Assembly (NCBI GenBank): GCA_023484045.1
Contig: JAMDAA010000018.1
Coordinates: 4-64,003 of the forward strand
Direction: 5' to 3'
Origin: Patescibacteria group bacterium
GTDB lineage: Bacteria; Patescibacteriota; Microgenomatia; Levybacterales; UBA12049
DNA length: 64,000 nucleotides
Below, piece after piece: positions 19,647 through 54,569 of the stretch. The notes beneath the pieces are model-generated. The model had not been told where the DNA came from and made no database searches. It was given only the letters and a program-made list of their open reading frames with translations. Both the position numbers and the translations under genes were made by a program. How positions within the stretch are numbered: position 1 is the stretch's first letter; each line of letters starts with the position of its first letter.

Positions 19647-20011
19647 AATATAAGAATATCACTAATCCAAATATAAAATAAAAAATTGCTGTCATCAAAT
19701 GGCCGCAGAACGTGAGTAATGGTGAAAGTAATCGGAGCTTTTTATTTATTCAAAATATTTACTGATCTTTTAATCGCCACAAATCCGTAACCCCACAAGA
19801 AAGGCAACCATAAAGGCATTAAGCCGAATAAACTATTTCTGCTAAAAGTTTCTGCACCTGTAGATACAAATAAATATTCAAAAATTACCATTACGCAAAA
19901 ACCAAAAATAAAAAATAAAATATCTTTTGATTCAAATTTTATAATCAACGATATTATAAGACTATTCTTTTTTCCATTTTTTCCCTTCGATTCGCTTCGC
20001 TCACTCAGGGT

Positions 20012-20281
20012 TTACAACTTTTTTAATAGTGCTTTATCTCCTTTAATTAAAGCTTCTTTTTTAGATCGCGACCAACTCTTTAATTGATATTCTCTTTGCA
20101 TTGCTTCTTTTCTTGAATTATAAGTTTCTGAGTAAGCCAATTCAAAAGAGTAAAAATTCCTAATATATTTTGCGGATTTCGAATTTTTAGCTTTATGCTC
20201 TTTCAGTCTTTTCTTTAAATTATTAGTTTGTCCAATATATAAAGTGTTTGAAGAGGTTCGAAGAATATAGACGTAGAACAT
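20012..20281 (-). CDS. GIY-YIG nuclease family protein (small, homing-endonuclease-like), copy 1
   Basis: 'MFYVYILRTSSNTLYIGQTNNLKKRLKEH' GIY-(10)-YIG motif; 89 aa. Confidence 0.8.
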   Translation of the reverse strand: MFYVYILRTSSNTLYIGQTNNLKKRLKEHKAKNSKSAKYIRNFYSFELAYSETYNSRKEAMQREYQLKSWSRSKKEALIKGDKALLKKL

Positions 20282-20450
20282 GGTTCGACTACGCGCTCAC
20301 CACACTCGACTCAAGTGCTATAGCCATGAGCGAACGAAGTGAGTCGAATGGCTGCTGGGCTTGGATTCCCCGCCTGCGGTCGCCTGAGGCGACAGCCGAT
20401 GGCGGGCAGGGAACCAAAATAAACGGATCCCCGCCTTGCCAAAGCCTGAG

Positions 20451-20521
20451 CTGCGGGACATGGATTCGAACCATGATACTGGGATCCAAAGTCCCATGTC
20501 CTACCATTAGACGATCCCGCA
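20451..20521 (-). tRNA. tRNA-Gln (anticodon TTG)
   Basis: manual cloverleaf: acceptor TGCGGGA/TCCCGCA, 3-bp D stem, anticodon stem TGGGA/TCCCA with loop CTTTGGA, T arm CATGG-TTCGAAT-CCATG. Confidence 0.8.
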
Positions 20522-20676
20522 GCACAAACTTCAGCGATGGCGGGCAGGCAAAGTCCCGCCTGCGGCCTACCATTAGACGACCCAGCAATACTCCTTAATG
20601 ATACCAAATTAGGCTTCGCGCTTCAATCCGATCAACATATATTGACTTAGTTTGATAGCTGTGTTTTAATCTGAAC

Positions 20677-21450
20677 ATGGACCAGGAACAAAACAAAATA
20701 GAGGAAAAGGAAGGGAAACAGGAAAACAAAAATTATGTCAAAATTCCGACACAGCTTTTTATATTTATAGGACTGGCTGTATTATTAATTATAATTTTAA
20801 TCGTCGGATTTTATCTTGGTTCAAATTACGGAAAAAATAATCAAAAAAGCGCACAACCAACTCCTGTTACGAAAGTCTCTCCGACGATTCAAGTAACACT
20901 GACGTCGACTCAAATTACACCAACTGTGTCTTTGCCCGAAAGTTCAAATCCAAACGTAAAAAGATTTATATCAGACATTTTGGGGATTTCGTTTACATAC
21001 CTTGAGAATCAGGACAACGGGAAAATATTAGCAAAAGAAGTCGGAAACAAAGTTTATGTTTATCCTTCAAATCTCCCTGAAACAACCGGACAATACGTAG
21101 AGGTAATGAGTAAAGACAAAAATAATACGCTCGAGCAGGCGCTCAGAAAATCGATTTTAAAAGGTTATTCCCAAGCTAATTGTCTTTTAAAACCGGTTAA
21201 TTTAAATAATGGCAATCCAGATTATGTTACGATCGAAATCGTCGTCCCGATAACCGATAATGATGATTTGTCAACGATCGATGAAAAGGCAAAAAAATGT
21301 CCGCCAAAATACACAGCGACTAATGGACAAGCCTATTTTCTGGAAGATAAAAATCATCCCGATAGAATGCTTTTCTTTTCGATCGGTCAATACGCGATAA
21401 TGTCCGAAGGCGGCAAAACGTGGCAGGAAACTATAAAAATATTTAAATAA
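20677..21450 (+). CDS. hypothetical membrane-anchored protein (N-terminal TM, extracytoplasmic)
   Basis: 257 aa ORF, TM helix residues ~25-47, Cys pair near C-terminus. Confidence 0.45.
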   Translation: MDQEQNKIEEKEGKQENKNYVKIPTQLFIFIGLAVLLIIILIVGFYLGSNYGKNNQKSAQPTPVTKVSPTIQVTLTSTQITPTVSLPESSNPNVKRFISDILGISFTYLENQDNGKILAKEVGNKVYVYPSNLPETTGQYVEVMSKDKNNTLEQALRKSILKGYSQANCLLKPVNLNNGNPDYVTIEIVVPITDNDDLSTIDEKAKKCPPKYTATNGQAYFLEDKNHPDRMLFFSIGQYAIMSEGGKTWQETIKIFK

Positions 21451-21453
21451 AAA

Positions 21454-21702
21454 TTATTTTAAGTAAACTAGTGTTCCTTCTTTGGCTTTTTGATTAATTT
21501 TTATTCCGACTTCGTCGCCAGACTTTCCGGCTTCGATCTGTGCATGTTCGACTTGCATCGATTCGACAACCTGCTCGAAAGTGTTATCGCCTTTAACAAA
21601 TTTGATTTTATCTCCAACCTTTAAAGGTTTTGTGAGTTTTATGATCGCGACTCCGACTTTATCGTAATAATGCGTTACTTTACCCAATGCGTCTTTATCC
21701 AA
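21454..21702 (-). CDS. small beta-barrel protein (EF-Tu domain-2 / KOW-like)
   Basis: 82 aa; strong SD 'gaggaggtgaaac' 8 nt upstream; 'GDKIKFVKGDNTFEQVVESMQVEH..IEAGKSGDEVGIKI' resembles translation-factor beta-barrel domain. Confidence 0.4.
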   Translation of the reverse strand: MDKDALGKVTHYYDKVGVAIIKLTKPLKVGDKIKFVKGDNTFEQVVESMQVEHAQIEAGKSGDEVGIKINQKAKEGTLVYLK

Positions 21703-21847
21703 AAAGTTTCACCTCCTCTCGCTAGAAACTCTTAACGAGTTTCATCGAGTATTAGAGTTTCTTGCGTCCGCCTTAAAACGCTCCGTGAGCCGTGTACGAA
21801 TAGTACAAGAAGACGAACGGCAAGTTTAGGCGGGCATATCAATAATA

Positions 21848-22417
21848 TTATTTTCGCCAGTACAAACCTATTATCTGTGCCTGATCGATTATGTGTCCCG
21901 TCATCGCCTTTTCGATTTCCGACCTTCGGGGCGCGCTTTTTAGATTCAACATCGTGTCCAAAGCGAATAATTTGAATACATAGTGATGAGCACCACTTGG
22001 TGGACACGGGGCAACATAACCTGCGTTCCCGATCGACGTTTTTCCTTCATACGCGCCTTTTGACGTAGAATTTTCCTGAATTTCTCTGACCGAGGGATTG
22101 ATATCGTAAACAACCCAATGAGTAAATGTTCCGCTCGGTGCGTCCGGGTCTTCGACAAATAAAACAAAACTTTTAGTATTTTGCGGCACATCTGAAATTA
22201 CTAGCGGGGGATTAATACCGCGTCCGTCACAAGAATATTGAACGGGTAAATTTGAGTTATCCTGAAAAGCAGGACTAGTAATTTTCATATTTGTTTTCTG
22301 TAGATTTTGAGTTTCTGAACTTTCTTTATTAATTATAGAACCAAAATAAAATTTTACAATAAGAAGGATTACAAAAATTAAGAGAAGAAAAACACCAATT
22401 AAAATTACGCGTTTCAT
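21848..22417 (-). CDS. YbhB/YbcL family phosphatidylethanolamine-binding (PEBP) protein, membrane-anchored
   Basis: 'DPDAPSGTFTHWVVYDI', 'GYVAPCPPSGAHHYVFKLFALD' PEBP signature. Confidence 0.8.
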   Translation of the reverse strand: MKRVILIGVFLLLIFVILLIVKFYFGSIINKESSETQNLQKTNMKITSPAFQDNSNLPVQYSCDGRGINPPLVISDVPQNTKSFVLFVEDPDAPSGTFTHWVVYDINPSVREIQENSTSKGAYEGKTSIGNAGYVAPCPPSGAHHYVFKLFALDTMLNLKSAPRRSEIEKAMTGHIIDQAQIIGLYWRK

Positions 22418-22420
22418 TAC

Positions 22421-22487
22421 GAGGTGAGCGGGTGACCGTACTTCGCTCGAACCTATATAAGTATATCACGTCAGAATTAATATCACA
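22421..22487. repeat. dispersed repeat module B, copy 1 (ggtgaccgtacYtYgctcgaacc ... gtatatcacgYcagaattaat)
   Basis: near-identical to 25927..26019, partial copy at 25375..25415. Confidence 0.6.
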
Positions 22488-22543
22488 GCTAAATGCCTTA
22501 AAAAAGCATTTTGCAAGTAAAAAGCTTTAAGAAAATCAAATTG

Positions 22544-23560
22544 TCAAAGTTTCCTTACGGTAACATCTTTTAGGTACTGATTTTGGAAATTTGTTTTATC
22601 TCCAATTTTAGCTTTACCATCAGAAACAAATCTCACTGATAAAGACTTCTGATATTTATTTGATAATCCTTGTACAAGCCGTAAAATTTGAGCAACTCTT
22701 TGAGGATCCTCATTAATACCAATAGGATAAGTGTCAATTCCTAAACCGGAATGTAAAGATAAAAATACATTTCTTTCTACAAAAAAATTCCCTTGTTCAT
22801 ATTCTTCAGCTAATTCGAAATCCTCAAGACAGGGCAACATTAAACCGCACAAGCCAACTGGTTTAGGATTATGTTTTTTGAGAAATTCTGTTATTTGTAT
22901 GTATGTATCTGTAGTTACTGATTGATCGAAGGAGAAGCCAAGTCTTTTTATGAAATTTACTAAACTTCCTTTTCCATCAAATATAGGCGCAATCGAAGAA
23001 TCAATGCCTAGAAAATCAGGATGACTACCAAACATTTTATACAATTTATCCCAACTCGCTTTAACTTTTTGCAACCACTCATCCAGAGTTGTGCAGCCTT
23101 CTGAAAGATCGGTTGCCTGCAGGCCTATCGCAAATCCGTTTCTTTCATATGCCGACGAAGGAAAATAGGGACTTGATGGTTTATTGTTAAACACATACGC
23201 AAAATTAAATGTTAAACCGGGCTTATTTTTTAATAGTTCAAATAAAACTTGACTGTGAGAAGCGCCTATTGATTCGGTTGTAAGATCAATGTTAAAAGAT
23301 ACCGTCTCGGTTTCATAAAAATCTGGTAAATTATTTAAAGTTTGCTGAAGTAATAATGGACCTACACCCAAAAGAATAGTCATATCACCAATACGATCTT
23401 CTAATTCTCTTGGATTTTTAAACGGAGAACAAATTCTTCTTGTTTGCACTTCATATCCCTGTTCGGTTATTTTCGCAGCTAACTCATTAACCTTGCTAAC
23501 CGCTTGCTGATCGGGTGTACTTGTAAAATAACAGACCGATCTGACCACTTCATTGCTCAT
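22544..23560 (-). CDS. hypothetical protein (338 aa)
   Basis: long ORF, AT-rich codon usage consistent with host; no domain recognised. Confidence 0.45.
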   Translation of the reverse strand: MSNEVVRSVCYFTSTPDQQAVSKVNELAAKITEQGYEVQTRRICSPFKNPRELEDRIGDMTILLGVGPLLLQQTLNNLPDFYETETVSFNIDLTTESIGASHSQVLFELLKNKPGLTFNFAYVFNNKPSSPYFPSSAYERNGFAIGLQATDLSEGCTTLDEWLQKVKASWDKLYKMFGSHPDFLGIDSSIAPIFDGKGSLVNFIKRLGFSFDQSVTTDTYIQITEFLKKHNPKPVGLCGLMLPCLEDFELAEEYEQGNFFVERNVFLSLHSGLGIDTYPIGINEDPQRVAQILRLVQGLSNKYQKSLSVRFVSDGKAKIGDKTNFQNQYLKDVTVRKL

Positions 23561-23686
23561 GGTTTATTGTCCCAGATTTTAAATAATCTTTATTTTCCCA
23601 ATGTTTTTCGCCATAATAATTCGCCCAGGTTCCTTAGCCGATAATTTGAGCAGGTTTTTGGACAACCTAATAGATTTAAATGATTT

Positions 23687-24520
23687 CTATTTACTTTCAA
23701 TAAGTTTTAGCTCTTTTGCATTTTTCTTTGTTATTACCTTTTTACCACTTTTTGATTCAATTTGCCTTCTGGCATTTCCAGCAATAGTTCCGCCTTCTTT
23801 AGCAACTTTTCTATTCTCTGGAAAGGTTTTTGGTTTACGTTTTTGAGAAATTTCTGTAGTAGCGGTTTCTGCCAACATATTAAGAACCAGTTCTAAATTT
23901 GTCATGTTATCCCGCAGGTTTTCTTTCTTCATTCCTTTGAGATTTTTATACTGTTTCGTGGTCATGCCTGTCCAAGCAATAGTAATATCGTCTGTTAAAA
24001 TGGCAAATTCGCTGGTTTCTTTTACTCCTCGCATTTCCCATTCATCCGTTAGAGCTTTCCTTATCTCAATACTTTTTAGGCGTTGATTGATCCAATCTTT
24101 ACTATAACCTTTTCTTAGATATGTTTGTAAGGCACGGTTAATTGCTAATTCGGGATCATGGGCTTCTTCGATACGCTCATATCCAACTCGAGCTAGCCAT
24201 AATTTAAAAGGCTCTGCATTAGGGGATGGAATAGATTGGATTATACGAAGCATGACTTCGGTATCGGCCACGTCTGTTAGATAAAACTTTCCATCAGCTG
24301 CCTGCATTTTTAGTTGTCCGATTTTTTCGGACAACTCACTTCCTTCCATCTTAAGCTTCCTCTTCAAATCATCCCAATACTTCCTAGGCCTTGAGGTTTG
24401 TGCTAAAACCTCCACTACGTCTACAACTGAAAAATACCACTTCTCCTCTTTGTCATTCCAGTGGCGACGGATCCTTCTCCCCTCAAAAATGGCAATTTTG
24501 GAAACCTTAGTCACAGCCAT
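23687..24520 (-). CDS. Bro-N domain protein (phage antirepressor-like N-terminal domain)
   Basis: N-terminal 'IAIFEGRRIRRHWNDKEEKWYFSVVDVVEVL' fits the Bro-N consensus; Lys-rich C-terminus. Confidence 0.65.
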   Translation of the reverse strand: MAVTKVSKIAIFEGRRIRRHWNDKEEKWYFSVVDVVEVLAQTSRPRKYWDDLKRKLKMEGSELSEKIGQLKMQAADGKFYLTDVADTEVMLRIIQSIPSPNAEPFKLWLARVGYERIEEAHDPELAINRALQTYLRKGYSKDWINQRLKSIEIRKALTDEWEMRGVKETSEFAILTDDITIAWTGMTTKQYKNLKGMKKENLRDNMTNLELVLNMLAETATTEISQKRKPKTFPENRKVAKEGGTIAGNARRQIESKSGKKVITKKNAKELKLIESK

Positions 24521-24701
24521 ATTTTAGCAGATTCTTTGGTGGATAATTACACGGATTTTTGCTATAGTCAGGATACCGAATGATCCCTGTAGTGAAAGTA
24601 CCTTATTATTAGGGAGCGCATGTCGGCACTGGCAACAGATGACCGTCTTGGCTACAGGGATCTCCTTTTATTTTGTTCCATCCTTATAGTATCATTTATT
24701 T

Positions 24702-25220
24702 ATGAGCAAATATGTTTTCAAACCCTATGATCCTATTTTCCCTATTCTTTTTGAGAATGAAAAGAAACGATTATTATCTTATCTGACGGGTAATTATAGG
24801 ATTGAACATATTGGAAGTACTGCTATACCAAACTTAGGTGGCAAAGGAATTATTGATATTGCAATTGCTATACGTAAAGAACAAATGCAGAATTTTTGTC
24901 AGAATTTGCAAAAAGCAGGATATACTTATGAACCTGAAGACGGGACAAATGAGAGAATGTTCTTCTGGCAAGACTTATTAGATACGTTAGAAAGTAACAG
25001 AAGATACCATATACATTTAACTTTTCCAGAAAGTGACGAATGGAAGCGAGTATTATTGTTTAGAGACTACTTAAAAAAGCATCCGAGTGAAGCAAAAAAG
25101 TACGCTGATATTAAGAAGAAAGCTGTAAACGAAATTAATGTTAATAAAGAAAAATATATGGCTGCAAAATCACCTCTAATGGAAGAACTATTAAAAAAAG
25201 CATCTACCGAAAAATTCTAA
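24702..25220 (+). CDS. GrpB family protein (UPF0157, nucleotidyltransferase-like)
   Basis: 'RIEHIGSTAIPNLGGKGIIDIAIAI' GrpB signature. Confidence 0.75.
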   Translation: MSKYVFKPYDPIFPILFENEKKRLLSYLTGNYRIEHIGSTAIPNLGGKGIIDIAIAIRKEQMQNFCQNLQKAGYTYEPEDGTNERMFFWQDLLDTLESNRRYHIHLTFPESDEWKRVLLFRDYLKKHPSEAKKYADIKKKAVNEINVNKEKYMAAKSPLMEELLKKASTEKF

Positions 25221-25486
25221 AAGGTCCGATTCTTGCCTCACGGTATGTTTTTCTTGAGGCTAGCAAAATTCCTCTAAAAATTTAGGCTCGAACCCTTCGG
25301 CAAACTCAGGGCTGTAGCTAGAAAATGTTGCTTTGAAGGGTAAAATTGGAAGGTTTCAAAAACCATTTCGGTCTGGAGCCGGTGACCGTACTTTGCTCGA
25401 ACCTGCGAGGTTTAATTACTCCAGATCTAATTTTACAACTTAATGTTCTTAAAGCCCATATAAAAATTAAAAGCTTTACTGATTTT

Positions 25487-25894
25487 TTAAATGATTTCTA
25501 AAATTGCGTCTTTATAAAACTGTGGCATCCGCAGCTCTTTTAGCTCTTGTTTGCTAAAAGCTTTAAATTCTGAAATGCCTGCTTCACCATTGAGCTCAAA
25601 AGAGTCTGATTTATTTTCTAAAAGACAATTATAAATAAGCACCAAAACACCATTCACTTCGTCATGAGTTCTTTCTCCACCCAAAAGATATGCTTTTATC
25701 AAGCTTTGAGGCTTAACATCAAACCCTAATTCTTCAAGAAGTTCTCGGGTCACTGTTAGTTCTGGTTGTTCACCAGCATCTAACTTTCCTCCAGGTAATT
25801 CCCATTCATTTCTTTCATTTTTTCTCAGCCAAACTTTGTTATTTTCAATAACAATGCCTTTAACCGAGATGGGAATAAGGTAAGATTTATACAT
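25487..25894 (-). CDS. NUDIX hydrolase
   Basis: Nudix box 'GGKLDAGEQPELTVTRELLEELGFDV'. Confidence 0.75.
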   Translation of the reverse strand: MYKSYLIPISVKGIVIENNKVWLRKNERNEWELPGGKLDAGEQPELTVTRELLEELGFDVKPQSLIKAYLLGGERTHDEVNGVLVLIYNCLLENKSDSFELNGEAGISEFKAFSKQELKELRMPQFYKDAILEII

Positions 25895-25926
25895 TAATGT
25901 AATTTTCTATACATTTCTGTCACTTT

Positions 25927-26019
25927 TGGAGCTGGTAACCGTACCTCGCTCGAACTCGCCTCGCTTCGCGGTCGAAGCGGGCCTATCAAAGTATATCACG
26001 CCAGAATTAATCCTACAGT
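25927..26019. repeat. dispersed repeat module B, copy 3 (full)
   Basis: see 22421..22487. Confidence 0.6.
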
Positions 26020-26054
26020 TAGTTACCCTTAAAGAACATTTAAAGATTAAAGTT

Positions 26055-26399
26055 TTATTGGGTACCAAAAGCTGGTTGATTAACTATTATGGCTTTGAAT
26101 GTACCCTTCATTTCGTATTTAGTTCCTTTTTCTACATAACAAACATCACCGACATTTAGTGTAACTTCCTCATTATTGAATACCAAAATTAAATTTCCCT
26201 CAAGAACATAATAAATCCGATTGTAATAAGCTGTCTCTTTTTCGTAATAATCTGTGGCTTCTGTTGTGGCCAAGGAAACATCTTTGGAAATATCTTTAGT
26301 AATAAAGCTTATTGCGATTTTATTGTCGGCAATTTTTCTTATTGTTACCTCGGACTTTCTAACAACTTTAAACATGTTTATAATTTTCTCCTTCCCCAA
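26055..26399 (-). CDS. cupin domain protein
   Basis: 'YYVLEGNLILVFNNEEVTLNVGDVCYVEKGTKYEMKG' cupin motifs. Confidence 0.65.
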   Translation of the reverse strand: MGKEKIINMFKVVRKSEVTIRKIADNKIAISFITKDISKDVSLATTEATDYYEKETAYYNRIYYVLEGNLILVFNNEEVTLNVGDVCYVEKGTKYEMKGTFKAIIVNQPAFGTQ

Positions 26400-26667
26400 G
26401 GGTTCTTTTTAAAGCTTTCTTGAGATTGTCTCTTCCAAACCCGCTTTTTAGAAAAACTTCGCGAGCTTTTGCGTCTTTTTCGTTGATAAAATATTCATAA
26501 TGAACAAGCTTAAGCGGTCTTCTGTTGGCTGTGGAACTTACTTCGCCTCGAGCATGTCTCAAAAGTCGATCTTTTAAATCAGCAGTATAACCAGTGTAAA
26601 ACTTTTTGTCTTTAAGACTAATAAGATTGTACACGTAGTATTTATTATTAGAACGTCTAACGTTCAT
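26368..26667 (-). CDS. GIY-YIG nuclease family protein, copy 3
   Basis: 'YYVYNLISLKDKKFYTGYTADLKDRLLRH' GIY-YIG motif; 99 aa. Confidence 0.75.
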   Translation of the reverse strand: MNVRRSNNKYYVYNLISLKDKKFYTGYTADLKDRLLRHARGEVSSTANRRPLKLVHYEYFINEKDAKAREVFLKSGFGRDNLKKALKRTLGEGENYKHV

Positions 26668-26741
26668 TAACTTTATATAATGATTTGCCCAGTCTGACTG
26701 GGCTCCTCGTCATCCTCGGTGAAACCGAGTTTGACTCGGTG

Positions 26742-26813
26742 AGCGGTGGACCGGATTCGAACCGGCGACATCTTCCTTGGCAAGGAAGCATTCTACCACT
26801 GAATTACCACCGC
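26742..26813 (-). tRNA. tRNA-Gly (anticodon GCC)
   Basis: manual fold: acceptor GCGGTGG/CCACCGC, anticodon stem CTTCC/GGAAG with loop TTGCCAA, T arm GCCGG-TTCGAAT-CCGGT. Confidence 0.8.
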
Positions 26814-26902
26814 GATTCGATCAAATAATACCAATTTCGCATCTCATTGTCAAAAAGTATCTAGCTCAGCAAAATCTCAGTTTGCTATAATTAAATTAAT
26901 TT

Positions 26903-27703
26903 ATGGACAATAATATCATTCAGGTTAAAAACCTCACGAAAAAATTTAAAGAATTCATCGCTGTTAATAACGTTTCGTTCGAAGTAAAAAAGAATGAGAT
27001 TTTCGCATTTTTGGGCCCAAACGGTGCCGGAAAAACTACAACAATAAAAATGCTTACAACTCTTCTTGATCCGACGAGCGGCGAAATTTTTTTGAATGGA
27101 TTCGACGCGCTAAAAGAGAAGAACGAAGCGCGCAAGTCTTTTGGAATCGTTTTTCAGGATCCGAGTCTCGACGACGAATTAACAGCTTTTGAAAACATGC
27201 AGTTTCACGCGGTTTTATACAATGTTAAAACAAATTCGCTCAGACAAAAGATAATCGAACTTTTGGATTTCGTCGAACTTCAAGACCGAAAAGATGCGCT
27301 TGTTAAAACTTTTTCGGGCGGAATGAAAAGAAGGCTCGAAATCGCAAGGGGATTATTGCATCACCCTAAAATTTTGTTTTTGGATGAACCGACGCTGGGT
27401 CTTGATCCACAAACGAGGAACAAAATCTGGGACTACATTAAAAATCTGAATAAAACAGAAGGAATAACCGTTTTTTTTACGACCCATTACATGGAAGAGG
27501 CAGAAAACATCGCGCAAAGGGTTGCGATAATCGACCACGGAAAAATTGTCGCAAAGGAAACTCCAGAGCAGCTTAAAAAATTGACAAAAAGTACTTCGCT
27601 TGAGAAAGCGTTTTTGGCGCTAACCGGAAAAAAAATTCGAGACGAAGAAGTAACCGGACAGGATATAATGAGAAACCACCGGAGAATGTGGAGGCATCGT
27701 TAA
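26903..27703 (+). CDS. ABC transporter ATP-binding protein (ABC-2 type)
   Basis: Walker A 'GPNGAGKTT', signature 'FSGGMKRRLEIA', Walker B 'ILFLDEPT'. Confidence 0.85.
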   Translation: MDNNIIQVKNLTKKFKEFIAVNNVSFEVKKNEIFAFLGPNGAGKTTTIKMLTTLLDPTSGEIFLNGFDALKEKNEARKSFGIVFQDPSLDDELTAFENMQFHAVLYNVKTNSLRQKIIELLDFVELQDRKDALVKTFSGGMKRRLEIARGLLHHPKILFLDEPTLGLDPQTRNKIWDYIKNLNKTEGITVFFTTHYMEEAENIAQRVAIIDHGKIVAKETPEQLKKLTKSTSLEKAFLALTGKKIRDEEVTGQDIMRNHRRMWRHR

Positions 27704-27704
27704 T

Positions 27705-28451
27705 ATGAACGCGATTTATATTTTGTGGCTTCGTCAACTCAAAAGATATTTCAGGGCAAAAGCGCGAATTATCGGGTCGCTCGGTCAACCGCTACTTTTT
27801 TTGATCGCTTTGGGTTTTGGTTTCGGCCCGATTTACCAAAAAGCAGGGCAGGGGAATTATCTCGATTTTATCACGCCCGGAATTATCGCGATGAGTATCC
27901 TTTTTACATCGGTATTTTTCGGTATCGAAATTATTTGGGATAAACAATTCGGGTTTTTAAAAGAGACTTTAGTCGCGCCTGTATCGAGATTTAATATTAT
28001 GCTCGGAAGAACATTGGGTGGGGCGACTGTTTCAACGCTTCAAGGAGTGATCGTTTTAGTGCTTTCGACAATTTTTGGTTTTAGATTTCATAATCTTGCG
28101 ATGTTACCAGTCGCGCTTCTTTTTATGTTTTTAATCGCGCTCGTTTTTACGGGTCTTGGGACCGCGATCGGGTCAAAACTCGATGACATGCAGGGATTTC
28201 AGTTAATTATGAATTTTTTGATAATGCCACTTTTTTTCTTGTCGGGCGCGCTTTTCCCGCTGAGTGGATTGCCAAAAGCGTTAGTAATTGTCGCGTCGAT
28301 CGATCCATTGAGCTACGGGATCGACGGAATCCGCGGGGCCTTGGTCGGCGCTTCCCATTTTAATATGTTTGTCGATTTCGGGGTTTTAGGAATTTTGACT
28401 GTAATACTTTTGGCGCTTGGCGCTTATTTTTTCTCCAAGGTTCAGATATAG
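27705..28451 (+). CDS. ABC-2 family transporter permease
   Basis: 6 TM helices, adjacent to and overlapping the ATPase gene. Confidence 0.75.
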   Translation: MNAIYILWLRQLKRYFRAKARIIGSLGQPLLFLIALGFGFGPIYQKAGQGNYLDFITPGIIAMSILFTSVFFGIEIIWDKQFGFLKETLVAPVSRFNIMLGRTLGGATVSTLQGVIVLVLSTIFGFRFHNLAMLPVALLFMFLIALVFTGLGTAIGSKLDDMQGFQLIMNFLIMPLFFLSGALFPLSGLPKALVIVASIDPLSYGIDGIRGALVGASHFNMFVDFGVLGILTVILLALGAYFFSKVQI

Positions 28452-28885
28452 TCGTTTACTCTGAACGAACATTGTTCCGTTTCACGGGATGCCTTGAACA
28501 CTTAAACCCTCTGCATTGTGTCGAAGCGGTGAATCGAACACCGATAACGTGTTCTTCAGACACGCGCCTTGACCACGTTGGCAACTTCGACAGATTCGAC
28601 TCCGCTCACTGTCTAGCGGAATCAATCAGGCTCCATGCTAATTCGTATGGTCAACCCTGAGCCCGTCGAAGGGTGACCACGTTGGCAACTTCGACAATCA
28701 ACTAATTATACCAAATGAACTCAAAAATTCCTATACGAAGAGGGAAGAGAAATACATGTCTCATAAGGAGTATCCTTATATGCGTAAACATCTGATCGCA
28801 CAGGGATACTCCTTGTTGAATTTGTTGAATTATTTTATCCCTTCGTCCCAAAAATTTCCCAAATTTTTGGTATACTAACCCAAAT

Positions 28886-29920
28886 ATGAAAAAATCAAAC
28901 ATGTATGAAAAATTATTGTCCAGGGATTTTTCTCTTCCTTCAGTTGAAGCATGGGTTAATGGCGAAGTAGCAAGTGCCAAGAAGTGGATGAAAAACGAAC
29001 AGTCATTACTTCCATACATTATTGCTGAAAGATCTGATAATACTGTCCATTTTTATTATGATTTAGGAGGACCCATTTCGCTCCCAGGCTATTTGATTAA
29101 ACGAGCTCGAGAAGATAAGGCTTTCATTCCCCAAATTGCAAAAACTGTTGTAAGCAATATACCTTTTATTAGGTCTGTCTACGAAAAAGAACAAGCGGTT
29201 GACTTGGATCAATTAAAAAGATTTATGAGACAACTTAAAGAAGCATACTTCTATTGTAATGCAATGTGGCTATTTGCTGACATGGACGAAGATAAGGTTA
29301 AAGGATTAAATTTGGAAAGGTTAAATACAGTAAGAAAGATGACAGAAAGATTATGCGACAGTTCCGATATGGTTATTCGGAAATCCCTTCTCAAGATATA
29401 TCCGCAACTTGGAGAGCTATCTTCAGTTTTACTGACTGATGAAATCGACTCAAGAACTGTTCCAACAGTAAAAATACTTGAGGGCCGATATAACGGTTAT
29501 TTCTATACGAATAATCAATTATTTGCAAGTGTTGATAAGTCATTTGTTTCAAAAAAGTTTCGTCTTCATTTCAAGAATATAAAAGTTAAAAAAACAAAAG
29601 AACTTAAAGGGAACGTTGCTCAACGGGGAATAGCGAAAGGATTTGTCCGAATACTTATGGGACACCGACAAATTACTGAAGTTCAAAAAGGCGAGATAAT
29701 TATTTCACCAATGACAATACCCGACTTTTTACCGGCCATGAAAAAAGCCTCGGCATTTGTAACAGATGAGGGTGGAATCCTTTGTCACGCCGCAATTGTT
29801 GCCAGAGAACTTCGAAAACCATGCATAGTAGGAACACGAATTGCCACTGAAGTTTTCAAAAATGGCGATTATGTAGAAGTAGACGCTTATAGAGGAATTA
29901 TAAAACTAATCGAACATTAG
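28886..29920 (+). CDS. PEP-utilising enzyme mobile-domain protein (PEP synthase / PPDK-like C-terminal phospho-histidine domain)
   Basis: C-terminal 'GIAKGFVRIL.....TEVQKGEIIISPMTIPDFLPAMKKASAFVTDEGGILCHAAIVARELRKPCIVG' matches PF00391-type domain; N-terminal 240 aa unknown. Confidence 0.6.
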   Translation: MKKSNMYEKLLSRDFSLPSVEAWVNGEVASAKKWMKNEQSLLPYIIAERSDNTVHFYYDLGGPISLPGYLIKRAREDKAFIPQIAKTVVSNIPFIRSVYEKEQAVDLDQLKRFMRQLKEAYFYCNAMWLFADMDEDKVKGLNLERLNTVRKMTERLCDSSDMVIRKSLLKIYPQLGELSSVLLTDEIDSRTVPTVKILEGRYNGYFYTNNQLFASVDKSFVSKKFRLHFKNIKVKKTKELKGNVAQRGIAKGFVRILMGHRQITEVQKGEIIISPMTIPDFLPAMKKASAFVTDEGGILCHAAIVARELRKPCIVGTRIATEVFKNGDYVEVDAYRGIIKLIEH

Positions 29921-29926
29921 ACTGGT

Positions 29927-32130
<2,204 letters not shown>

Positions 32131-32166
32131 AAAAAAGTGTCGACATGTGCATTATTATATCAAATG

Positions 32167-42733: not shown

Positions 42734-42788
42734 ACTTTTTATTTATAAACTGCGGCAGAATTTTTCGAAGTGTCCCGCTAAGCGGGAC

Positions 42789-45023
42789 TCAACGGGGCAG
42801 GTTAACATCGCTTTTTAAACGATGTGAAATTTTGAGAAAAGACAATCTTTTTCTAAAAATTACGAATACGATTATCAATGGCAATAATATTAATAACCAT
42901 GCAAGATTTACAGACACTTTTCCGCTTTGTCCACCTACTGTTGTCGACATTCCGAATACACTACTCAAATTTGCGTGATTAGAAACTCCGGCAATTTTCA
43001 CGTCGGCAGTCGTGTATGAATCGCCCAAAGACGAATCGTTGCTGTTTGAACCCGCAACAACCGCTGCTGCTGTCGGAGTAGGCGAAGACGCAGTACCGGA
43101 ATTACCATTATTGTTATTATTATTGTTGTTTGTAGGACTTTGTCCGCCGACCGGATGATTTTCTGGCGCAGATGTTGGATTTTGGGCTAACTTTATGTCA
43201 TCTGCTTTCGGTTGTTTTTCTTGTCCCGGTGTCACAAAATCTCCGAGCCAACTTCCGAAAACATTAACAACCGTCACCATTAATTTTCCGCCTTTTATAT
43301 TGTTGTTAACAAAATTTACGAGGTTTGCGATTACTTTCGCGTCGCCGGTTTTGATCGTCGAATCTCCGCCTGTATTTTTAGACGCATCGTTTCCGCCGGT
43401 ATTTGCCGTTAGGTTAATATTATTGACGACTTTACCCGTGTTTGTCTGAACAGTCGTATTGTTTGTGTTTTGTGAAACATCGGTCGTATTCGTTGAATTA
43501 CTGCCGTTTCCAGAATTTACCGCGGTAATCGTGCCGTCTGCTCCTACTTTAAATTCTGTTCCGTCCGATCCGGCAAAATTACTGCCTGTTGGCGCACCCA
43601 ATAACTTTCCAACCCAGTTTCCTGCTTCATTAACAACCACTAACCACCAATTGACGCCGTCAACATTGCTGTTTGCGATGTTTAAAACATTCGCATCAAC
43701 CGATGTGTTTCCGGTTGTAACAGATGAATTACCATTCGTATTTCCACTGACACTGTTATCTCCCGATATCGCATTAAGAGTTAGGTTATTTTCTATGTTA
43801 GCGTCGTTCTTTTGGAAAGAGTTATTATTTGTTGTCTTGTCATAATTTACAGTATTATCCGAACCCGTTCCGTTTCCTGCATTAGCCAAAGTTGTACTTG
43901 CCCCCGAATTTGCAAATGCCTTGTCAACCTCGCTTTGCGGCAAAATTATGTCGCCGACCAAATTCCCAAAAACATTAACAACTCCGTAAACTACATTTCC
44001 GGCCATATTATTATTAACAAAGTTCAGTACGTTTGCTGCAACATTTGCGTCACCGGTTGTAATCGATGAATTCCCGTCGGTATTTTTAGACGCTGTGTTA
44101 TTTCCGGAGTCGGAAAGAAGCGTCATGTTGTTTCCGACAGTCCCGTCGTTATTTTGAAAAGTCGTGTTATTCGTGTTTTGTGAAAGATTGGCATTATTTG
44201 TGGTATCAGCACCGTTATTTGCGTTTGCGACCATCGCGTTTCCGGATGTTCCACACCCCGAAACACAACTTGCGCCAAAATCCAAAACTATATCGCCGAC
44301 ATGATCGTCTGCGACATTAAATTCAGAAACCGCAACACCCGCAACATTCGTATTTAATCCGGTTATAATCGTACCCGTTGTGTTGGCATTTCCGCTATTA
44401 ATAGTCGAGTCTCCACCTGTATTTTTGGAAGCAGAATTTTGTCCGGATATCGAATCCTGATTAAGATTATTAGAAACTACACCGCTGTTATTTTGAACTA
44501 CAGTACTACCGTCTGTAATATTTGCTGTTCCGTTATTTTCTGACCCAGTTCCATTACTGCTGTTTGCTACCAAAACTCCGCCCGAAACATTGGCCGGATC
44601 AATCGCAGATAAATTACTGTTTCCGAGACTGTTAATAACTCCACTATTTGTTATATCCCCGCTATTAATAGTATTGTCACCGACTTTACCATCTGATGTC
44701 GTCCCGGAAGTCGTAGGAACATTTGTTGCAGTAACTGTTGGGGTCGGAGTCGGATCATCTGAATGATGGCGACGTGGTTTTTCCGTCGGAGTAGGGGTTG
44801 GTGTCGAACTAAGTATTTCATTCAAAGTCGGTGTTGTGGGCGCGGCTGGAACGTCTGGCGCTGTTGGAGCCTGGGGCACATCTGGCGCTGTAGGGGCAGC
44901 AGACGGTACAATCGGCGCATCGGGAGGCGTAGGAATATCAAACGCTCTTACAGGCGGCGCCTGCATTAATAAAAGTACCGCTATCGAAAGTATCGCTAAA
45001 TATTTTTTAATTTTTTTAATCAT
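42789..45023 (-). CDS. giant (744 aa) Asn/Thr/Gly repeat surface protein with Pro/Ala/Thr N-terminal linker and C-terminal TM anchor
   Basis: signal peptide; 'APTAPDVPQAPTAPDVPAAPTTPT' linker; >8 repeats 'SG.N.ASKNTGG.S.I.TG.A.V.AN.LN..N.N..G'; C-terminal 'LLILLPLIIVFVIFRKR'. Confidence 0.65.
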   Translation of the reverse strand: MIKKIKKYLAILSIAVLLLMQAPPVRAFDIPTPPDAPIVPSAAPTAPDVPQAPTAPDVPAAPTTPTLNEILSSTPTPTPTEKPRRHHSDDPTPTPTVTATNVPTTSGTTSDGKVGDNTINSGDITNSGVINSLGNSNLSAIDPANVSGGVLVANSSNGTGSENNGTANITDGSTVVQNNSGVVSNNLNQDSISGQNSASKNTGGDSTINSGNANTTGTIITGLNTNVAGVAVSEFNVADDHVGDIVLDFGASCVSGCGTSGNAMVANANNGADTTNNANLSQNTNNTTFQNNDGTVGNNMTLLSDSGNNTASKNTDGNSSITTGDANVAANVLNFVNNNMAGNVVYGVVNVFGNLVGDIILPQSEVDKAFANSGASTTLANAGNGTGSDNTVNYDKTTNNNSFQKNDANIENNLTLNAISGDNSVSGNTNGNSSVTTGNTSVDANVLNIANSNVDGVNWWLVVVNEAGNWVGKLLGAPTGSNFAGSDGTEFKVGADGTITAVNSGNGSNSTNTTDVSQNTNNTTVQTNTGKVVNNINLTANTGGNDASKNTGGDSTIKTGDAKVIANLVNFVNNNIKGGKLMVTVVNVFGSWLGDFVTPGQEKQPKADDIKLAQNPTSAPENHPVGGQSPTNNNNNNNNGNSGTASSPTPTAAAVVAGSNSNDSSLGDSYTTADVKIAGVSNHANLSSVFGMSTTVGGQSGKVSVNLAWLLILLPLIIVFVIFRKRLSFLKISHRLKSDVNLPR

Positions 45024-45133
45024 GTCTATTTTCCTTTAATTCTTAATTCTGAACTCTAAATTCTAAATTTTTTTCCTGGTGTTTGTAGGGGTTTCGAGGA
45101 AGTGCTCTCGAAACGCCCTACAAACTTACCAAA

Positions 45134-46393
45134 CTAGACTGAAAGACCAAGGCTCAATAATAAATCGTGCAAATTAATAGTTAAATTAACTCCGCCCCAA
45201 TTTAATTCTGGCCAAGTTATTTCGTCTCCAACCTGGTTAACGTTTACAGAATTTTGGATGTCTGTCTTAACGTCTGCATTGCCGGATTCGACTTTTGGAT
45301 CTCCTTTTGGATTTCCAGTATTGTCATCTGCTTCGTTGTTTCCGGTTTTTGCGTCTAAATCGTAAAGATTGTTGTTAAGATAGGCACCATTTGCTTGGAA
45401 AACACCGTCGTCTTGAAGATCTCCAATTTTTCCATCGGATGATAGTGTCGCATCGATTGTGTTATCCGAATCTGTACCGTTTCCTTCGATTGTGGCATTA
45501 ACCTTACCTAGAAGGCATCCGCCGCAATCTATGTCAGCTGCGTTAAAGTTAACTTTATTGTCAACTTTTGCCGTAACATCTGCGTTGCCGCTTTTAATTT
45601 CGACAGCTCCGCCGGTGTTATCATCGGCTTCGTTGTTTCCGGTTTTTGCGTCAACGTTAACATTATTGTCTACGTATGCGCTATTATCCTGAGAAACAAC
45701 TACAGCGCTCGAGTGAGTAAGATCAATCGTATTGTCTGATTCCTCACCGTTACTTATAATGCCGAGGCTCAAATCTCCACCTTTTCCAAGACCATTGCCT
45801 ACTTTTGCAAAATTTGCATTAGCCATTGTCGAAAGCGAGGTATTTACCTTTGCATTTCCGGAGGTGATTTTAACATCTCCGCCTGTATTGTCTTCTGCGC
45901 TGTTATTACCGGTTTTTGCGTCAACATTGACGTCGTTATTAACGTCAGCATTGTTTGTCTGGAAAACAGTCGTTACGTTATTTTTATCAAGATTAACGGT
46001 ATTGTCTGATTCTGTCCCATTTTTCTTGATTTCAACTGTTGTATTTCCAGATGCGCAACAATCAATACTTGCTTGATTGCTGTTAACTTCATTCGTTACG
46101 TTTGCCGTAACATTCGAATTTCCGGATTTTATGGTAACGTTTCCGCCCGTGTTATCATCGGCTGTATTATTACCAGTTTTTGCGTCAACATTAACATTAT
46201 TTGTTATATTGGCGGTGTTGTTTTGTACAACAACTCTTGTCTGGTTCATGGTAACATTCGCGGTATTATTTGTGTCGCTACCGTTTCCGGAAATTTTTAT
46301 TGTCGTATCTGCAAACGCTAATGGCATAAAACCATTAAGCAATAAAGCTCCGGTCGCTATACCTGTTACTAATTTCTTTGTAAATTTTGTCAT
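45134..46393 (-). CDS. secreted Asn-rich repeat protein (419 aa), first gene of minus-strand surface operon
   Basis: signal peptide 'LLLNGFMPLAFADTTIKI'; repeats 'NVNVDAKTGNN.A.DNTGG.V.I.SGNA.V'; paired Cys 'IDCC'/'IDCGGC'. Confidence 0.65.
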   Translation of the reverse strand: MTKFTKKLVTGIATGALLLNGFMPLAFADTTIKISGNGSDTNNTANVTMNQTRVVVQNNTANITNNVNVDAKTGNNTADDNTGGNVTIKSGNSNVTANVTNEVNSNQASIDCCASGNTTVEIKKNGTESDNTVNLDKNNVTTVFQTNNADVNNDVNVDAKTGNNSAEDNTGGDVKITSGNAKVNTSLSTMANANFAKVGNGLGKGGDLSLGIISNGEESDNTIDLTHSSAVVVSQDNSAYVDNNVNVDAKTGNNEADDNTGGAVEIKSGNADVTAKVDNKVNFNAADIDCGGCLLGKVNATIEGNGTDSDNTIDATLSSDGKIGDLQDDGVFQANGAYLNNNLYDLDAKTGNNEADDNTGNPKGDPKVESGNADVKTDIQNSVNVNQVGDEITWPELNWGGVNLTINLHDLLLSLGLSV

Positions 46394-51214: not shown

Positions 51215-51856
51215 ATGAATCGGGAAGAAGCGTATCAAATTTTATTTGAGCTTGTAAAAAATCCCAGTCTTATAAAACATCATTTAGCTTGTGAAGCCGT
51301 GATGAAGGCTTTGTATCGCAGATTAAATAATCAGATAAATCAACAGGACGAAGAAAAATGGGGACTAGTAGGATTATTGCATGATGCCGATTATGAATTA
51401 TCGCACGATCACCCGGAAAAACATTCTTTGATTTTAGAAGAAAAGTACGGAAACGTAATTCCGCAAGATGTTATGTACGCGATAAAATGCCACGATTTCG
51501 AAAACACAAAAGTCGAGCCAAAAAGTCTTATGGATTGGAGTATTTATTGTTGTGACGAATTAACCGGAATAATAATCGCTTCAACTCTTATTCACCCTGC
51601 CTCGCCAGACGGCTCGCCTCGACTCGCCTCGCGAAGCGGGTTCGGCGAAGCGGGCGGGCAAGGCGGGCTCGACAAAAAATTAGTATCTGTTACTCCCGAT
51701 TTTGTCTTAAACCGTTTTAACGAAAAATCTTTTGCCAGAAGCGCAAATCGCAATTCCGTAAAAAGGTGCGAAGACAAACTCGGCATTCCGCTTTTGGAAT
51801 TTATTGCTATTTGCTTAAACGCGATGAAGATGATAAGTAACGAGCTTGGATTGTAA
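51215..51856 (+). CDS. HD-domain phosphohydrolase with GC-rich in-frame insertion
   Basis: 'HLACEAVMKAL', 'LLHDADYE' HD motif; residues ~128-150 ('PASPDGSPRLASRSGFGEAGGQGG') encoded by an ~80-nt GC-rich segment. Confidence 0.6.
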   Translation: MNREEAYQILFELVKNPSLIKHHLACEAVMKALYRRLNNQINQQDEEKWGLVGLLHDADYELSHDHPEKHSLILEEKYGNVIPQDVMYAIKCHDFENTKVEPKSLMDWSIYCCDELTGIIIASTLIHPASPDGSPRLASRSGFGEAGGQGGLDKKLVSVTPDFVLNRFNEKSFARSANRNSVKRCEDKLGIPLLEFIAICLNAMKMISNELGL

Positions 51857-53169: not shown

Positions 53170-53746
53170 AGGAAATCAACAAAGAGTTTTTTACAGGATT
53201 AATGAGCGTATTTATGCGCCCAATCTTCGCGTTTTAGACTCTGAGGGAAAGCAAATCGGTTTATTGAGTCGCTTTGAAGCACTAAGTCGCGCAAAAGACG
53301 AAGGATTGGATTTAGTCGAAATCGCGCCGAAGGCAAACCCACCGGTAGCAAAAATAATCGACTATAATAAATTCCTTTACCAGATGGAGAAGAAAAAACG
53401 CGAGGAAAAGAAAAAAACTAAAAGTTCTGAGACAAAAGAAATAAGACTCGGACCTTTTATGGACGATCACGATTTGCAAGTCGCGATAAGACGGGGACGG
53501 GATTTTTTAGGAGACAATAACAAGGTCAGACTCGTCGTAAAATTTATCGGAAGACAAATCGTCCATCCCGAATTCGGAAAAGAAATATTAAATAAAGTTG
53601 TAACGGCGCTTTCGGACATATCAAAAACCGAAAGAGATCCGCATTTTGAGGGAAAGCAACTGATAACAATGCTTTCTCCGGAAAGGAAAAAGGTAAAACA
53701 AGATGAAGAAGAAAAAAATCAAGAAATCGGTGTCGAAAAGATTTAA
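53153..53746 (+). CDS. infC: translation initiation factor IF-3
   Basis: 'RINERIYAPNLRVLDSEGKQIG...LDLVEIAP.ANPPVAKIIDYNKF' matches IF-3 N/C domains; start uncertain (IF-3 genes often use AUU). Confidence 0.8.
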   Translation: MIKRFRGNQQRVFYRINERIYAPNLRVLDSEGKQIGLLSRFEALSRAKDEGLDLVEIAPKANPPVAKIIDYNKFLYQMEKKKREEKKKTKSSETKEIRLGPFMDDHDLQVAIRRGRDFLGDNNKVRLVVKFIGRQIVHPEFGKEILNKVVTALSDISKTERDPHFEGKQLITMLSPERKKVKQDEEEKNQEIGVEKI

Positions 53747-53900
53747 GATCACAAAAAAGGGGAAAGTACTTTTTGATCACCAATACACTGGTCATTTAAA
53801 AAGACATAAGTCTAAAAGAAGACAAAGAAGACAAAACGAACCCGGAATTTTAAAGGGAAGTTTTGCTAAAAAAATTAAAAAACTCATGGGAAATTTATGA
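53703..53900 (+). CDS. rpmI: 50S ribosomal protein L35
   Basis: 'KKIKKSVSKRFKITKKGKV...HLKRHKSKR' aligns with L35 '[20 protein letters not shown]'; overlaps infC 3' end. Confidence 0.75.
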   Translation: MKKKKIKKSVSKRFKITKKGKVLFDHQYTGHLKRHKSKRRQRRQNEPGILKGSFAKKIKKLMGNL

Positions 53901-54079
53901 AGCTTCTGAAAGAAGCGGAATCCTTCCGAAGCTTCAGCGAAGGTGGATAAATGGGAAAACAAAGAGCGCGAAAAAATTTTAATTTTAGGGAAACAAGGTC
54001 TGAAAGATCGGCGAACCGTTCTTACAGAGATTTCGGAAGATATTTTAAAAAATTATTCCAAATCAGACCTAAATAAAAT

Positions 54080-54424
54080 ATGACAAGAGTTAAAAGAGGG
54101 GTCGTGTCCCGGAGAAAACACAATAAATTAAAAGAGCTGACAAAAGGGTATAGGGGAACTAAGAGTAAGCTCATAAGAGACGCTAAACAAGCCGAACTTC
54201 ATGCCGGCGCTTACGCTTATCATGGAAGAAAAAGAAAAAAGAGAGAATTCCGAAGACTTTGGATTACAAGAATCGGCGAAGCGGTAAAAGTGGAAGGGAT
54301 TTCCTACAGTGTTTTTATCGATAAATTGAAAAAGGGGAATATAGAGCTTGACCGAAAAATTTTAAGCGAATTAGTTGTCGAAGATCCTGCTACTTTTAAA
54401 CAGATCGTAAATAGTGTAAAATGA
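54080..54424 (+). CDS. rplT: 50S ribosomal protein L20
   Basis: 'MTRVKRGVVSRRKHNKLKELTKGYRG...LWITRI' canonical L20. Confidence 0.9.
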   Translation: MTRVKRGVVSRRKHNKLKELTKGYRGTKSKLIRDAKQAELHAGAYAYHGRKRKKREFRRLWITRIGEAVKVEGISYSVFIDKLKKGNIELDRKILSELVVEDPATFKQIVNSVK

Positions 54425-54569
54425 TTATACCCTGAGCGAAGTCGAGGGGTAATACTGAGTGTAATCGAAGTATATGAAAAGAAGTTTGAATTTTTGGTTT
54501 TATTACTTTACTTCCCGGTAGGGGGGACGAAGTTAATGGATTAATATAATCCAAAACCAAAACTTACAG

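Follow-up and report, generated by a model that had tools for sequence, protein, structure and literature searches.

GC-rich modules in a tRNA-rich region of a Patescibacteria genome as three probable layers of small selfish or duplicated DNA

How do short GC-rich repeat modules come to be scattered through an AT-rich bacterial genome, and do they descend from one element? The question is raised by a stretch of 64,000 nucleotides (nt) from a Patescibacteria group bacterium, hereafter the window, which has a GC content of about 38%. In it, the original prediction recognized two dispersed modules, A and B, together with other GC-rich stretches and a 22-nt direct repeat, and took all of them for relics of a single family resembling miniature inverted-repeat transposable elements (MITEs). 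The window holds housekeeping genes (trigger factor, L20, IF3 and PheS), three small GIY-YIG genes adjoining tRNAs, and eight tRNA genes, seven of which lie within 20-38 kb. We consider it probable that the GC-rich modules represent three kinds of small selfish or duplicated DNA, layered upon one another and concentrated in this variable, tRNA-rich 20-38 kb part: (i) module A and related CGAAG-rich hairpins would be widespread hairpin repeats similar to repetitive extragenic palindromic (REP) sequences, (ii) module B would be a separate small open reading frame (ORF) of about 125 nt that occurs throughout the candidate phyla radiation (CPR), has been copied to many places, often in same-direction arrays, and in most cases adjoins, just beyond its 5' edge, the start of an unrelated gene on the opposite strand, and (iii) incoming tRNA copies would repeatedly overwrite or nest in tRNA genes, often together with a small GIY-YIG gene, and this replacement would leave fragments of 15-60 nt that resemble GC-rich repeats.

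The dispersed GC-rich repeats are real: copies were recovered, and all the module A sites listed earlier exist. Aligned in one orientation, these sites have in common CCC-TTCG(A/G)C-N2-4-CTCA-GGG or its complement, and the unit is a short hairpin in which a conserved loop of 13-14 nt (TTCGACAAGCTCA) is closed by 3-8 complementary bases of free sequence. Two loop types, TTCGAC-ARG-CTCA and TTCGAC-TNCG-CTCA, each occur in both orientations. Under a strict definition (the loop motif plus at least three complementary flanking bases) the window contains eight units as compared with 0.035 in block shuffles, and four looser units bring the total to about 12; our scan added sites at 20281-20302, 20322-20353, 28595-28608, 32268-32287 and 37003-37029. 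The stems vary (ccc/ggg, tgg/cca, agcca/tggct, ttc/gaa and tttatgg/ccataaa). Units are found singly, in tandem or as inverted pairs of 65-95 nt, and at three loci (28590-28674, 32268-32352 and 20281-20353) such pairs have a spacer of about 50 nt, the inverted arms closing both ends of segments of 84-86 nt at the first two loci and of 69 nt (20282-20350) at the third.

The proposed association of the GC-rich modules with tRNAs and GIY-YIG genes was confirmed, and part of the GC-rich material is tRNA sequence. The 22-nt direct repeat is exact, its second copy lying at 28674-28695 and not at 28665-28686; its assignment to the same GC-rich class did not hold, for BLAST of the tRNAs against the window identifies it as a minus-strand duplicate of bases 1-22 of tRNA-Phe. 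The same search found exact fragments of tRNA-Leu(gag) (bases 70-89 at 32248-32267), tRNA-Gln (bases 8-22 at 20566-20580) and tRNA-Val(gac) (bases 1-27 and 45-61 at 37933-37991). On the minus strand at 20343-20590 an old tRNA-Gln survives as two pieces, the 5' one at 20566-20590 and the 3' one at 20343-20435, with an intact tRNA-Gln (20450-20521) nested between them, and the T loop of the old gene holds a 42-nt palindrome (z=-4.3). An inverted A-type pair (20281-20353, minus strand; 20322-20353 plus 20281-20302) lies directly between the 3' end of this old tRNA-Gln and the start codon of a GIY-YIG gene of 89 aa (20012-20281, minus strand), and 1 nt past the stop codon of that gene there is an A-type unit with an enlarged loop (CCCTGAG-TGAGCGAAGCGAA-TCGAAGGG; 19983-20013, minus strand). 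Similarly, an inverted pair (28590-28674, minus strand; 28654-28674 plus the core 28595-28608) separates tRNA-Phe from its duplicated 5' fragment, and at 32248-32352 (minus strand) a pair (32333-32352 plus 32268-32287) is followed by the 20-nt duplicate of the tRNA-Leu(gag) 3' end; the layout of tRNA, unit pair and tRNA 3'-end copy recurs in loci L132 and L146 of other genomes.

Further tRNA loci carry remnants of the same kind. On the plus strand at 37933-38375 the intact tRNA-Val(gac) (38237-38311) is preceded by a GIY-YIG gene (38001-38246) and, before that, by a truncated copy of tRNA-Val, and it is followed by a tRNA-like copy that lacks its 5' part. A GC-rich hairpin stretch after tRNA-Leu(tag) (34938-35015, plus strand) ends in TCCCGGCTAC, the 3' end of an older tRNA allele. 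When this region (34795-35035) is aligned with that of the relative L174 (2612-2745), the acceptor stem differs, there are 38 nt extra upstream and 73 nt extra downstream, and the outer ends, GCGGGTG and TCCCGGCTAC (the terminal 7-10 nt), are those of the L174-type allele. Judged from this alignment, tRNA-Leu(tag) sits within what is left of an older tRNA allele. In tRNA-like copies at 37933-37993, 38313-38375 and 20379-20393 the anticodon arm is replaced by a perfect hairpin, GTCGCC-NNN-GGCGAC, with TTA or TGA as its loop, and the same hairpin is present in a partial tRNA of another CPR genome (L024).

In all sequence examined, 12 of 14 small GIY-YIG ORFs have a tRNA on the same strand within 100 nt, and the 3' end of several overlaps the tRNA 5' end; the third such gene of the window (26368-26667, minus strand; 99 aa) lies 74 nt downstream of tRNA-Gly. 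The three window genes match the GIY-YIG domain PF01541 (E=5e-19, 2.5e-12 and 5.6e-18), and the proteins, which are 81-99 aa long and fall below the TIGR01453 cut-off, consist of the catalytic domain only, with no attached DNA-binding domain. We suggest that these genes may help one tRNA allele to replace another, through cleavage and repair as in homing, and that flanking hairpins would be dragged along. Alternatively, the duplicated tRNA fragments could be what is left of integrative elements that targeted tRNA genes and then decayed, or imported DNA may have undergone illegitimate recombination anchored by homology. Integration at tRNA genes classically leaves direct repeats of tRNA ends on either side of the inserted DNA, and the Phe and Leu(gag) pairs enclose just 84-86 nt and no gene. 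We regard this origin as a real but lesser possibility, given that no integrase was found in or near the tRNA fragment loci, that 5' and 3' tRNA parts are both duplicated, that the inserts are tiny, and that GIY-YIG genes and tRNAs are so regularly adjacent.

Module B is a unit of a different kind. It is about 125 nt long and present in the window in three full-length copies: the repeat search recovered those proposed earlier (22426, 25376 and 25929 at 83-93% over 29 nt; 22452-22511 against 25982-26041 at 77% over 60 nt), and the supposedly partial copy at 25375-25415 is a full-length one. Copy B1 (22426-22530, plus strand) has a small ORF (E-R-VTVLRSNLYKYITSELISQLNALKKHF..) with its stop at 22528-22530, and the start codon of a PEBP gene (22417, minus strand) abuts its 5' edge. 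Copy B2 (25926-26059, plus strand) contains an in-frame GC hairpin of 27 nt, and a NUDIX gene starts 33 nt from its 5' edge; copy B3 (25373-25501, plus strand; L-E-P-VTVLCSNLRGLITPDLILQLNVLKAHIKIKSF..) overlaps the 3' end of the NUDIX gene with its own 3' end. Just upstream of B3, at 25277-25360, GCTCGAACC is directly followed by an A-type unit (cccTTCGGCAAACTCAggg; 25293-25311, plus strand) and by weakly B-like sequence; this segment may represent a fourth copy that has decayed and that took up a unit at a hotspot also used in P0050 and B2.

A scan for GTNACCGTACNTNGCTCGAAC (18 fixed bases) over one genome per species (596 Gb) returned 53 loci, about 17 chance matches being expected by arithmetic. 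Five of these are GC-rich without further similarity and were taken as chance; the other 48 are AT-rich, and their homology extends for about 120 nt to one side of the motif but not to the other. They are mostly labelled Microgenomates/Patescibacteria (Daviesbacteria, Woesebacteria, Gottesmanbacteria, Levyibacteria, Roizmanbacteria, WWE3 and Pacebacteria), some Third Party Annotation metagenome-assembled genomes (MAGs) being labelled Gammaproteobacteria. On the plus strand the frame GTN-ACC-GTA is open for 33-39 codons in nearly all copies and for 72-81 codons (about 78) in a long form. The ORF opens with xTG-GAG-CTG-GTG-ACC-GTA-CTT, the homology edge being the start codon itself (ATG, TTG or CTG before GAGCTG), and the peptide reads (M/L)-E-L-VTVL(R/C)SNLxxL(I/V)TP(D/E)LILQLNALKxHIxI(K/E)SF with conservative replacements made of several nucleotide changes. 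Column entropy is 1.18, 0.88 and 1.47 at codon positions 1, 2 and 3 (third above second, p=2e-4), and indels of 114, 27 and 33 nt are in frame. The open frame, the constant length and the codon-position pattern make module B look protein-coding on the plus strand, and it may be a translated mini-gene; protein searches with it gave short hypothetical proteins only, all of them lacking a Pfam domain.

Copies of module B form same-direction arrays (five copies 0.9-1.1 kb apart in L007, three in L037, and L039), and the genes beside them are unrelated (G6PD, BipA, HAD, APH, HIT, BRO-N and a resolvase; PEBP and NUDIX in the window). A tRNA fragment, group II intron domain V, an omega-RNA end and attC were considered as identities and ruled out by sequence and ORF orientation, and a resemblance to ribbon-helix-helix proteins seen by eye was dropped, as neither the structure model nor the fold and sequence searches supported it. 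In L002, L019 and L021 (also L009, L014 and L035) a block of more than 1.4 kb, which encodes an AbrB-like protein, small membrane proteins and a hydrolase of 355 aa, has module B as its end piece; this block is 88-94% identical between MAGs labelled as different candidate phyla, and its homology ends exactly at the B start codon, which suggests that it may be phage-like or move horizontally. Upstream of the BRO-N gene of the window lies a conserved non-coding element of about 100 nt (24556-24674, minus strand) that recurs in L012, L024, L033, L034 and L050 and has no Rfam match; RNAalifold folds it into a long closing helix and two hairpins, with compensatory changes in six pairs.

Could module B instead be primarily a non-coding outward promoter with a conserved 5' leader for the gene on the opposite strand, its open frame a relic or coincidence? 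A promoter of the form TTAATTCTG-N-GTGATATACT had been proposed on the minus strand. These words are the antisense of the codons YIT(S/P)EL, and a sigma-70 scan of the window did not call the site; promoter-like sites are moreover not enriched in the window (29 against 21.7±5.4). The proposal retains some support, as a -10-like box (TGNTATAAT; at least five of six bases) stands at the proposed place in 10 of 38 copies, B1 and B2 included, with a TG extension in nine of the ten, and 36 of 55 copies have a divergent gene that starts no more than 250 nt from the B edge, in many cases within 60 nt and with no visible Shine-Dalgarno sequence. The first 30 nt at the edge are conserved too, also in copies found independently of the search pattern. 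Nevertheless, we find a primarily non-coding role doubtful: the box is missing in three quarters of the copies, and codon-position entropy, constant ORF length and the in-frame indels point to constraint at the level of the protein. A promoter is not a property of the whole module B family. The promoter and coding readings are compatible with each other, and for the sub-family including B1 and B2 it is possible that the mini-gene doubles as an outward promoter. Between the B edge and the neighbouring gene start there is, at 25896-25923 (minus strand), a conserved ACAGAAA-repeat module (GTGACAGAAATGTAYAGAAARTTACAT), which is also present in L007, L009, L022, L025 and L028 and which the promoter scan calls in the window as GTGACA-16-TACATT.

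Module A reaches across many phyla. The metagenome scan used the paired pattern TTCGRCNNNCTCAGGG-N35-65-TGAGCGNAGTCGAA (27 fixed bases) and gave more than 120 contigs among the matches listed, with a GC content of 0.31-0.73; because the pattern fixes GGG after the F unit, architecture statistics from this sample are biased and only the R-unit flanks are unbiased. At least three complementary flanking bases are found in 70% of 135 non-redundant R cores compared with 11% when flanks are shuffled, and 19 different 4-bp stems occur among them. Since the flanks are largely paired and the stems diverse, the loop is conserved while the stem is free but paired. BLAST of one A-type pair found it repeated in unannotated regions of replicons from Sphingobium, Novosphingobium, Sphingomonas, Comamonas, Polaromonas and Methylotuvimicrobium, units are also carried by proteobacterial megaplasmids, and near-identical copies of about 90 nt stand in unrelated contexts (L065, L074, L134, L166 and L172). 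Most units lie at gene 3' ends, including those of tRNAs; pairs are located between convergent genes (20), between tandem genes (29) and between divergent genes in only three cases, and among the tandem genes they have no polarity relative to transcription (16 vs 13). Within the window a variant unit (acccTGAGCGAAGTCGAGgggt; 54429-54450, plus strand) is found 5 nt past the rplT stop codon and another with an AT-rich 7-bp stem (tttatggTTCGGCAGGCTCAccataaa) at 37003-37029 (plus strand). The 150 ORFs beside A-type units cover 174 ordinary and diverse Pfam families with no recurrent mobiliser gene among them, and a comparison of near-identical metagenome contigs for insertion polymorphisms gave one complex indel only. 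Taken together, these data support the view that A-type units, singly and in inverted pairs, act like a REP- or MITE-type hairpin repeat that is dispersed and non-autonomous. Such units could spread in trans in the form of DNA hairpins, whether by a Y1/HUH-type enzyme, by single-strand transposition or through break repair, and persist where they are harmless.

A-type hairpins might alternatively be functional elements of the host, either an RNA or DNA hairpin bound by a conserved protein or a stabiliser or terminator at gene 3' ends. Such a function would explain conservation of the loop across phyla, and it is in line with a loop that stays constant from 31% to 73% GC genomes while the stems covary, with the strong 3'-end bias, and with units directly after tRNAs and rplT. 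We think this unlikely, because both orientations are equally common, units form tandem arrays and occur in frame inside genes, the near-identical copies of about 90 nt stand in unrelated contexts, no run of T follows the hairpins, and there is no match to an Rfam model. Rfam 15 gave no hit beyond tRNAs in the window or in 20 unit-bearing loci (both run at the gathering threshold; E-value mode was used for 22380-22560 and 19900-38800). Readings of the loop as a hammerhead or K-turn were set aside because core positions mismatch by eye, and a conserved RNA structure for the three unit pairs of the window because the predicted folds are mutually inconsistent.

Module A had been described as always intergenic, which is contradicted by two tandem units that lie in frame within the trigger factor gene (35444-35462 and 35468-35487, plus strand; PFDKLRAR-PFDKAQG). 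In an alignment of 20 orthologues the window protein has 290 aa compared with a modal length of 275 aa; the 275-aa proteins, including the closest relative at 80% identity, do not have the insert, and the empty site in the DNA of L174 reads GAA|AAACAGGAA. Some orthologues have PFD..AQGK once or twice at the insert site of the window protein, and at a second site PSTGSGQ-type inserts correspond to an A-type unit in another reading frame. Units would survive inside genes where, as in trigger factor, the frame is kept in a surface loop. Trigger-factor entries P0091, P0132, P0142 and P0143 have N-terminal extensions such as MAKLADAHGLGP..GSSPL that read like the translation of a tRNA gene lying upstream, a sign that public annotations may have mis-called start codons. 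A second gene of the window, encoding an HD-domain protein, contains a GC-rich hairpin insert of 72 nt or 24 codons in frame (ASPDGSPRLASRSGFGEAGGQGGL; 51599-51670, plus strand), and the 24 aa are missing from eight homologues. The 27-nt hairpin of B2 (25955-25981; peptide SPRFAVEAG) occupies the corresponding site in L030, in three copies of L039 and in L045 and is therefore inherited within a B sub-family. These in-gene hairpins and the A-type units have TTCGAC/GTCGAA or CGAAG words in common; they appear related in type, and common descent could not be established.

A more far-reaching interpretation is that the A-type unit is a new mini mobile element in which only the 13-14-nt loop is conserved and which inserts into the centres of short palindromes already present or with an inverted duplication of its target. 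Either mode of insertion would explain free stems around a loop that is identical from CPR to Proteobacteria. A structure-specific nuclease, for instance the ubiquitous stand-alone GIY-YIG proteins of about 90 aa, could make such an element, which would be able to colonise essential genes in frame. We consider this quite unlikely. In support of the view that module A is a REP-like hairpin repeat superimposed on module B and on tRNA replacement, the evidence is that given above, and several points weigh against it. Regarding module A, no mobilising enzyme tied to the hairpin units was found, at the trigger-factor site comparison with the empty site of L174 leaves a target duplication of at most AAG, and the recurrence of inserts at one site in many trigger-factor lineages could reflect old inheritance instead of repeated insertion. 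The loop is kept across phyla, unlike that of ordinary REPs; the REP analogy leaves this unaccounted for, and the conservation hints at a function. The two highly similar genes in the window for a Y1 transposase resembling REP-associated tyrosine transposases (RAYTs; 5820-6491 and 32579-33244, both minus strand; 47 bits against NF047646, cut-off 80 bits) are flanked by CACCC(C)-N1-3-(G)GGGTG hairpins (6536, 32526 and 33290) and not by A-type units, and the RAYT of L142 has GTAG repeats of its own that are a separate family from A-type units. These genes and their hairpins, of which a solo copy lies at 55932, are a small REP-RAYT-like system distinct from module A, and a RAYT as mobiliser of the A-type units is thus unsupported. 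Regarding the tRNA layer, only one of the three GIY-YIG genes in the window is flanked by A-type units. Regarding module B, the unit lacks a Shine-Dalgarno sequence, many copies start with TTG or CTG and some, such as B1, have no start codon; the AlphaFold2 model of the long form is moderate (pLDDT 72), with four helices and a disordered N-terminus, and the long form has no Foldseek match below E=7 and no sequence match in the PDB, which is why translation of B is put forward as an inference only.

That modules A and B, the CGAAGCGGG-type stretches and the 22-nt repeat are all decayed copies of one MITE-like family, as originally predicted, is very improbable and largely refuted: the modules share GC-richness and words (ACTTCGCTC is found in B as GTACTTCGCTCGAAC and in type-2 units as TTCGACTTCGCTCA, and the B2 hairpin has TTCGAC/GTCGAA arms) and co-occur at 25.2-26.0 kb, but B-bearing loci contain only two A units in 395 kb (0.05 per 10 kb as compared with 0.94 per 10 kb in the window), module B has coding-type conservation, the 22-nt repeat is a tRNA fragment, and no parent insertion sequence with matching ends was found in the window or among the 150 neighbouring ORFs. 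The CGAAGCGGG-type stretches likewise fall apart into the B2 hairpin, the HD-domain insert, the tRNA-flanked stretch at 34938-35015 and a hairpin at 222-275 whose unit-like loop was judged by eye only. What survives of the MITE-like family is module A, with its pairs behaving as a non-autonomous repeat. Apart from these modules, three large ORFs (381, 744 and 419 aa) at 41588-46393 (minus strand) are packed with internal repeats of about 264-340 nt (families D2-D5) and probably encode repetitive surface proteins.

The mobile elements of CPR organisms are poorly known, and module B and the tRNA-linked GIY-YIG genes mark variable, gene-exchanging parts of their genomes. A hairpin repeat with one loop in bacteria of 31-73% GC would be unusual, as REP-type repeats are normally lineage-specific, and the shared loop points either to horizontal spread or to a factor, common to these bacteria, that mobilises or binds the repeat. 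We found no description, in the literature searched, of a hairpin unit that is spread across bacteria and combines a conserved loop with free stems: full-text searches with unit DNA strings and the derived peptides gave nothing relevant, and general searches gave only REP/RAYT and organelle papers. For metagenome annotation it matters that conserved proteins acquire odd peptides (PFDKLRA, LRQAQG, PSTGSGQ) from the A-type repeat, which also creates spurious ORFs, and GC-rich islands by tRNAs in AT-rich genomes should be checked first for tRNA fragments.

How do the three layers compare with known systems? The A-type pairs have the terminal inverted repeats of MITEs; a short target-site duplication of fixed length was not found, the flanking repeats at two sites being tRNA fragments of 20-23 nt, and neither the window nor the 150 neighbouring ORFs contain a parent transposase with A-type ends. 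REPs and REPINs (REP doublets forming hairpins) are short imperfect palindromes found as singlets or inverted doublets at gene 3' ends and occasionally within genes (PMC3733652; PMC3116915). The A-type units likewise are GC-rich palindromes of many copies that stand mainly at gene 3' ends, alone or doubled in inverted orientation around a spacer, and the window too has RAYT-like genes. They differ from REPs in lacking a GTAG or CGTC tag, in having a conserved loop and a free stem where REPs have the reverse, and in a core common to several phyla where REP families are lineage-specific. The Rickettsia palindromic elements (RPEs) are 100-150 bp long and belong to one lineage, whereas A-type units are about 20-25 nt (65-95 nt as pairs), occur in many phyla and have no sequence similarity to RPEs.

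GC clusters and double-hairpin elements of fungal mitochondria are GC palindromes in AT-rich DNA near tRNAs and GIY-YIG genes and are sometimes found in ORFs. The window likewise has GC palindromes in AT-rich DNA by tRNAs and GIY-YIG genes, sometimes in frame; the fungal elements are organellar and of other sequence families. A free-standing GIY-YIG homing gene, SegB of phage T4, sits among tRNA genes, and its mobility co-converts flanking tRNA sequence (PMC2988022; PMC13096335). The GIY-YIG genes of the window are similarly lodged by tRNA genes; in contrast to SegB, they are chromosomal in CPR and encode 81-99 aa of catalytic domain alone. Finally, module B lacks the R''/L''/L'/R' palindrome of integron attC sites, shows coding-type conservation and has no integrase in the window, but it is reminiscent of integron cassette arrays (the VCRs, or Vibrio cholerae repeats) in that a repeat of about 120 nt punctuates same-direction arrays of unrelated accessory genes (NUDIX, PEBP, GrpB, cupin and APH), and it differs from these arrays in standing also beside core genes (G6PD and BipA).

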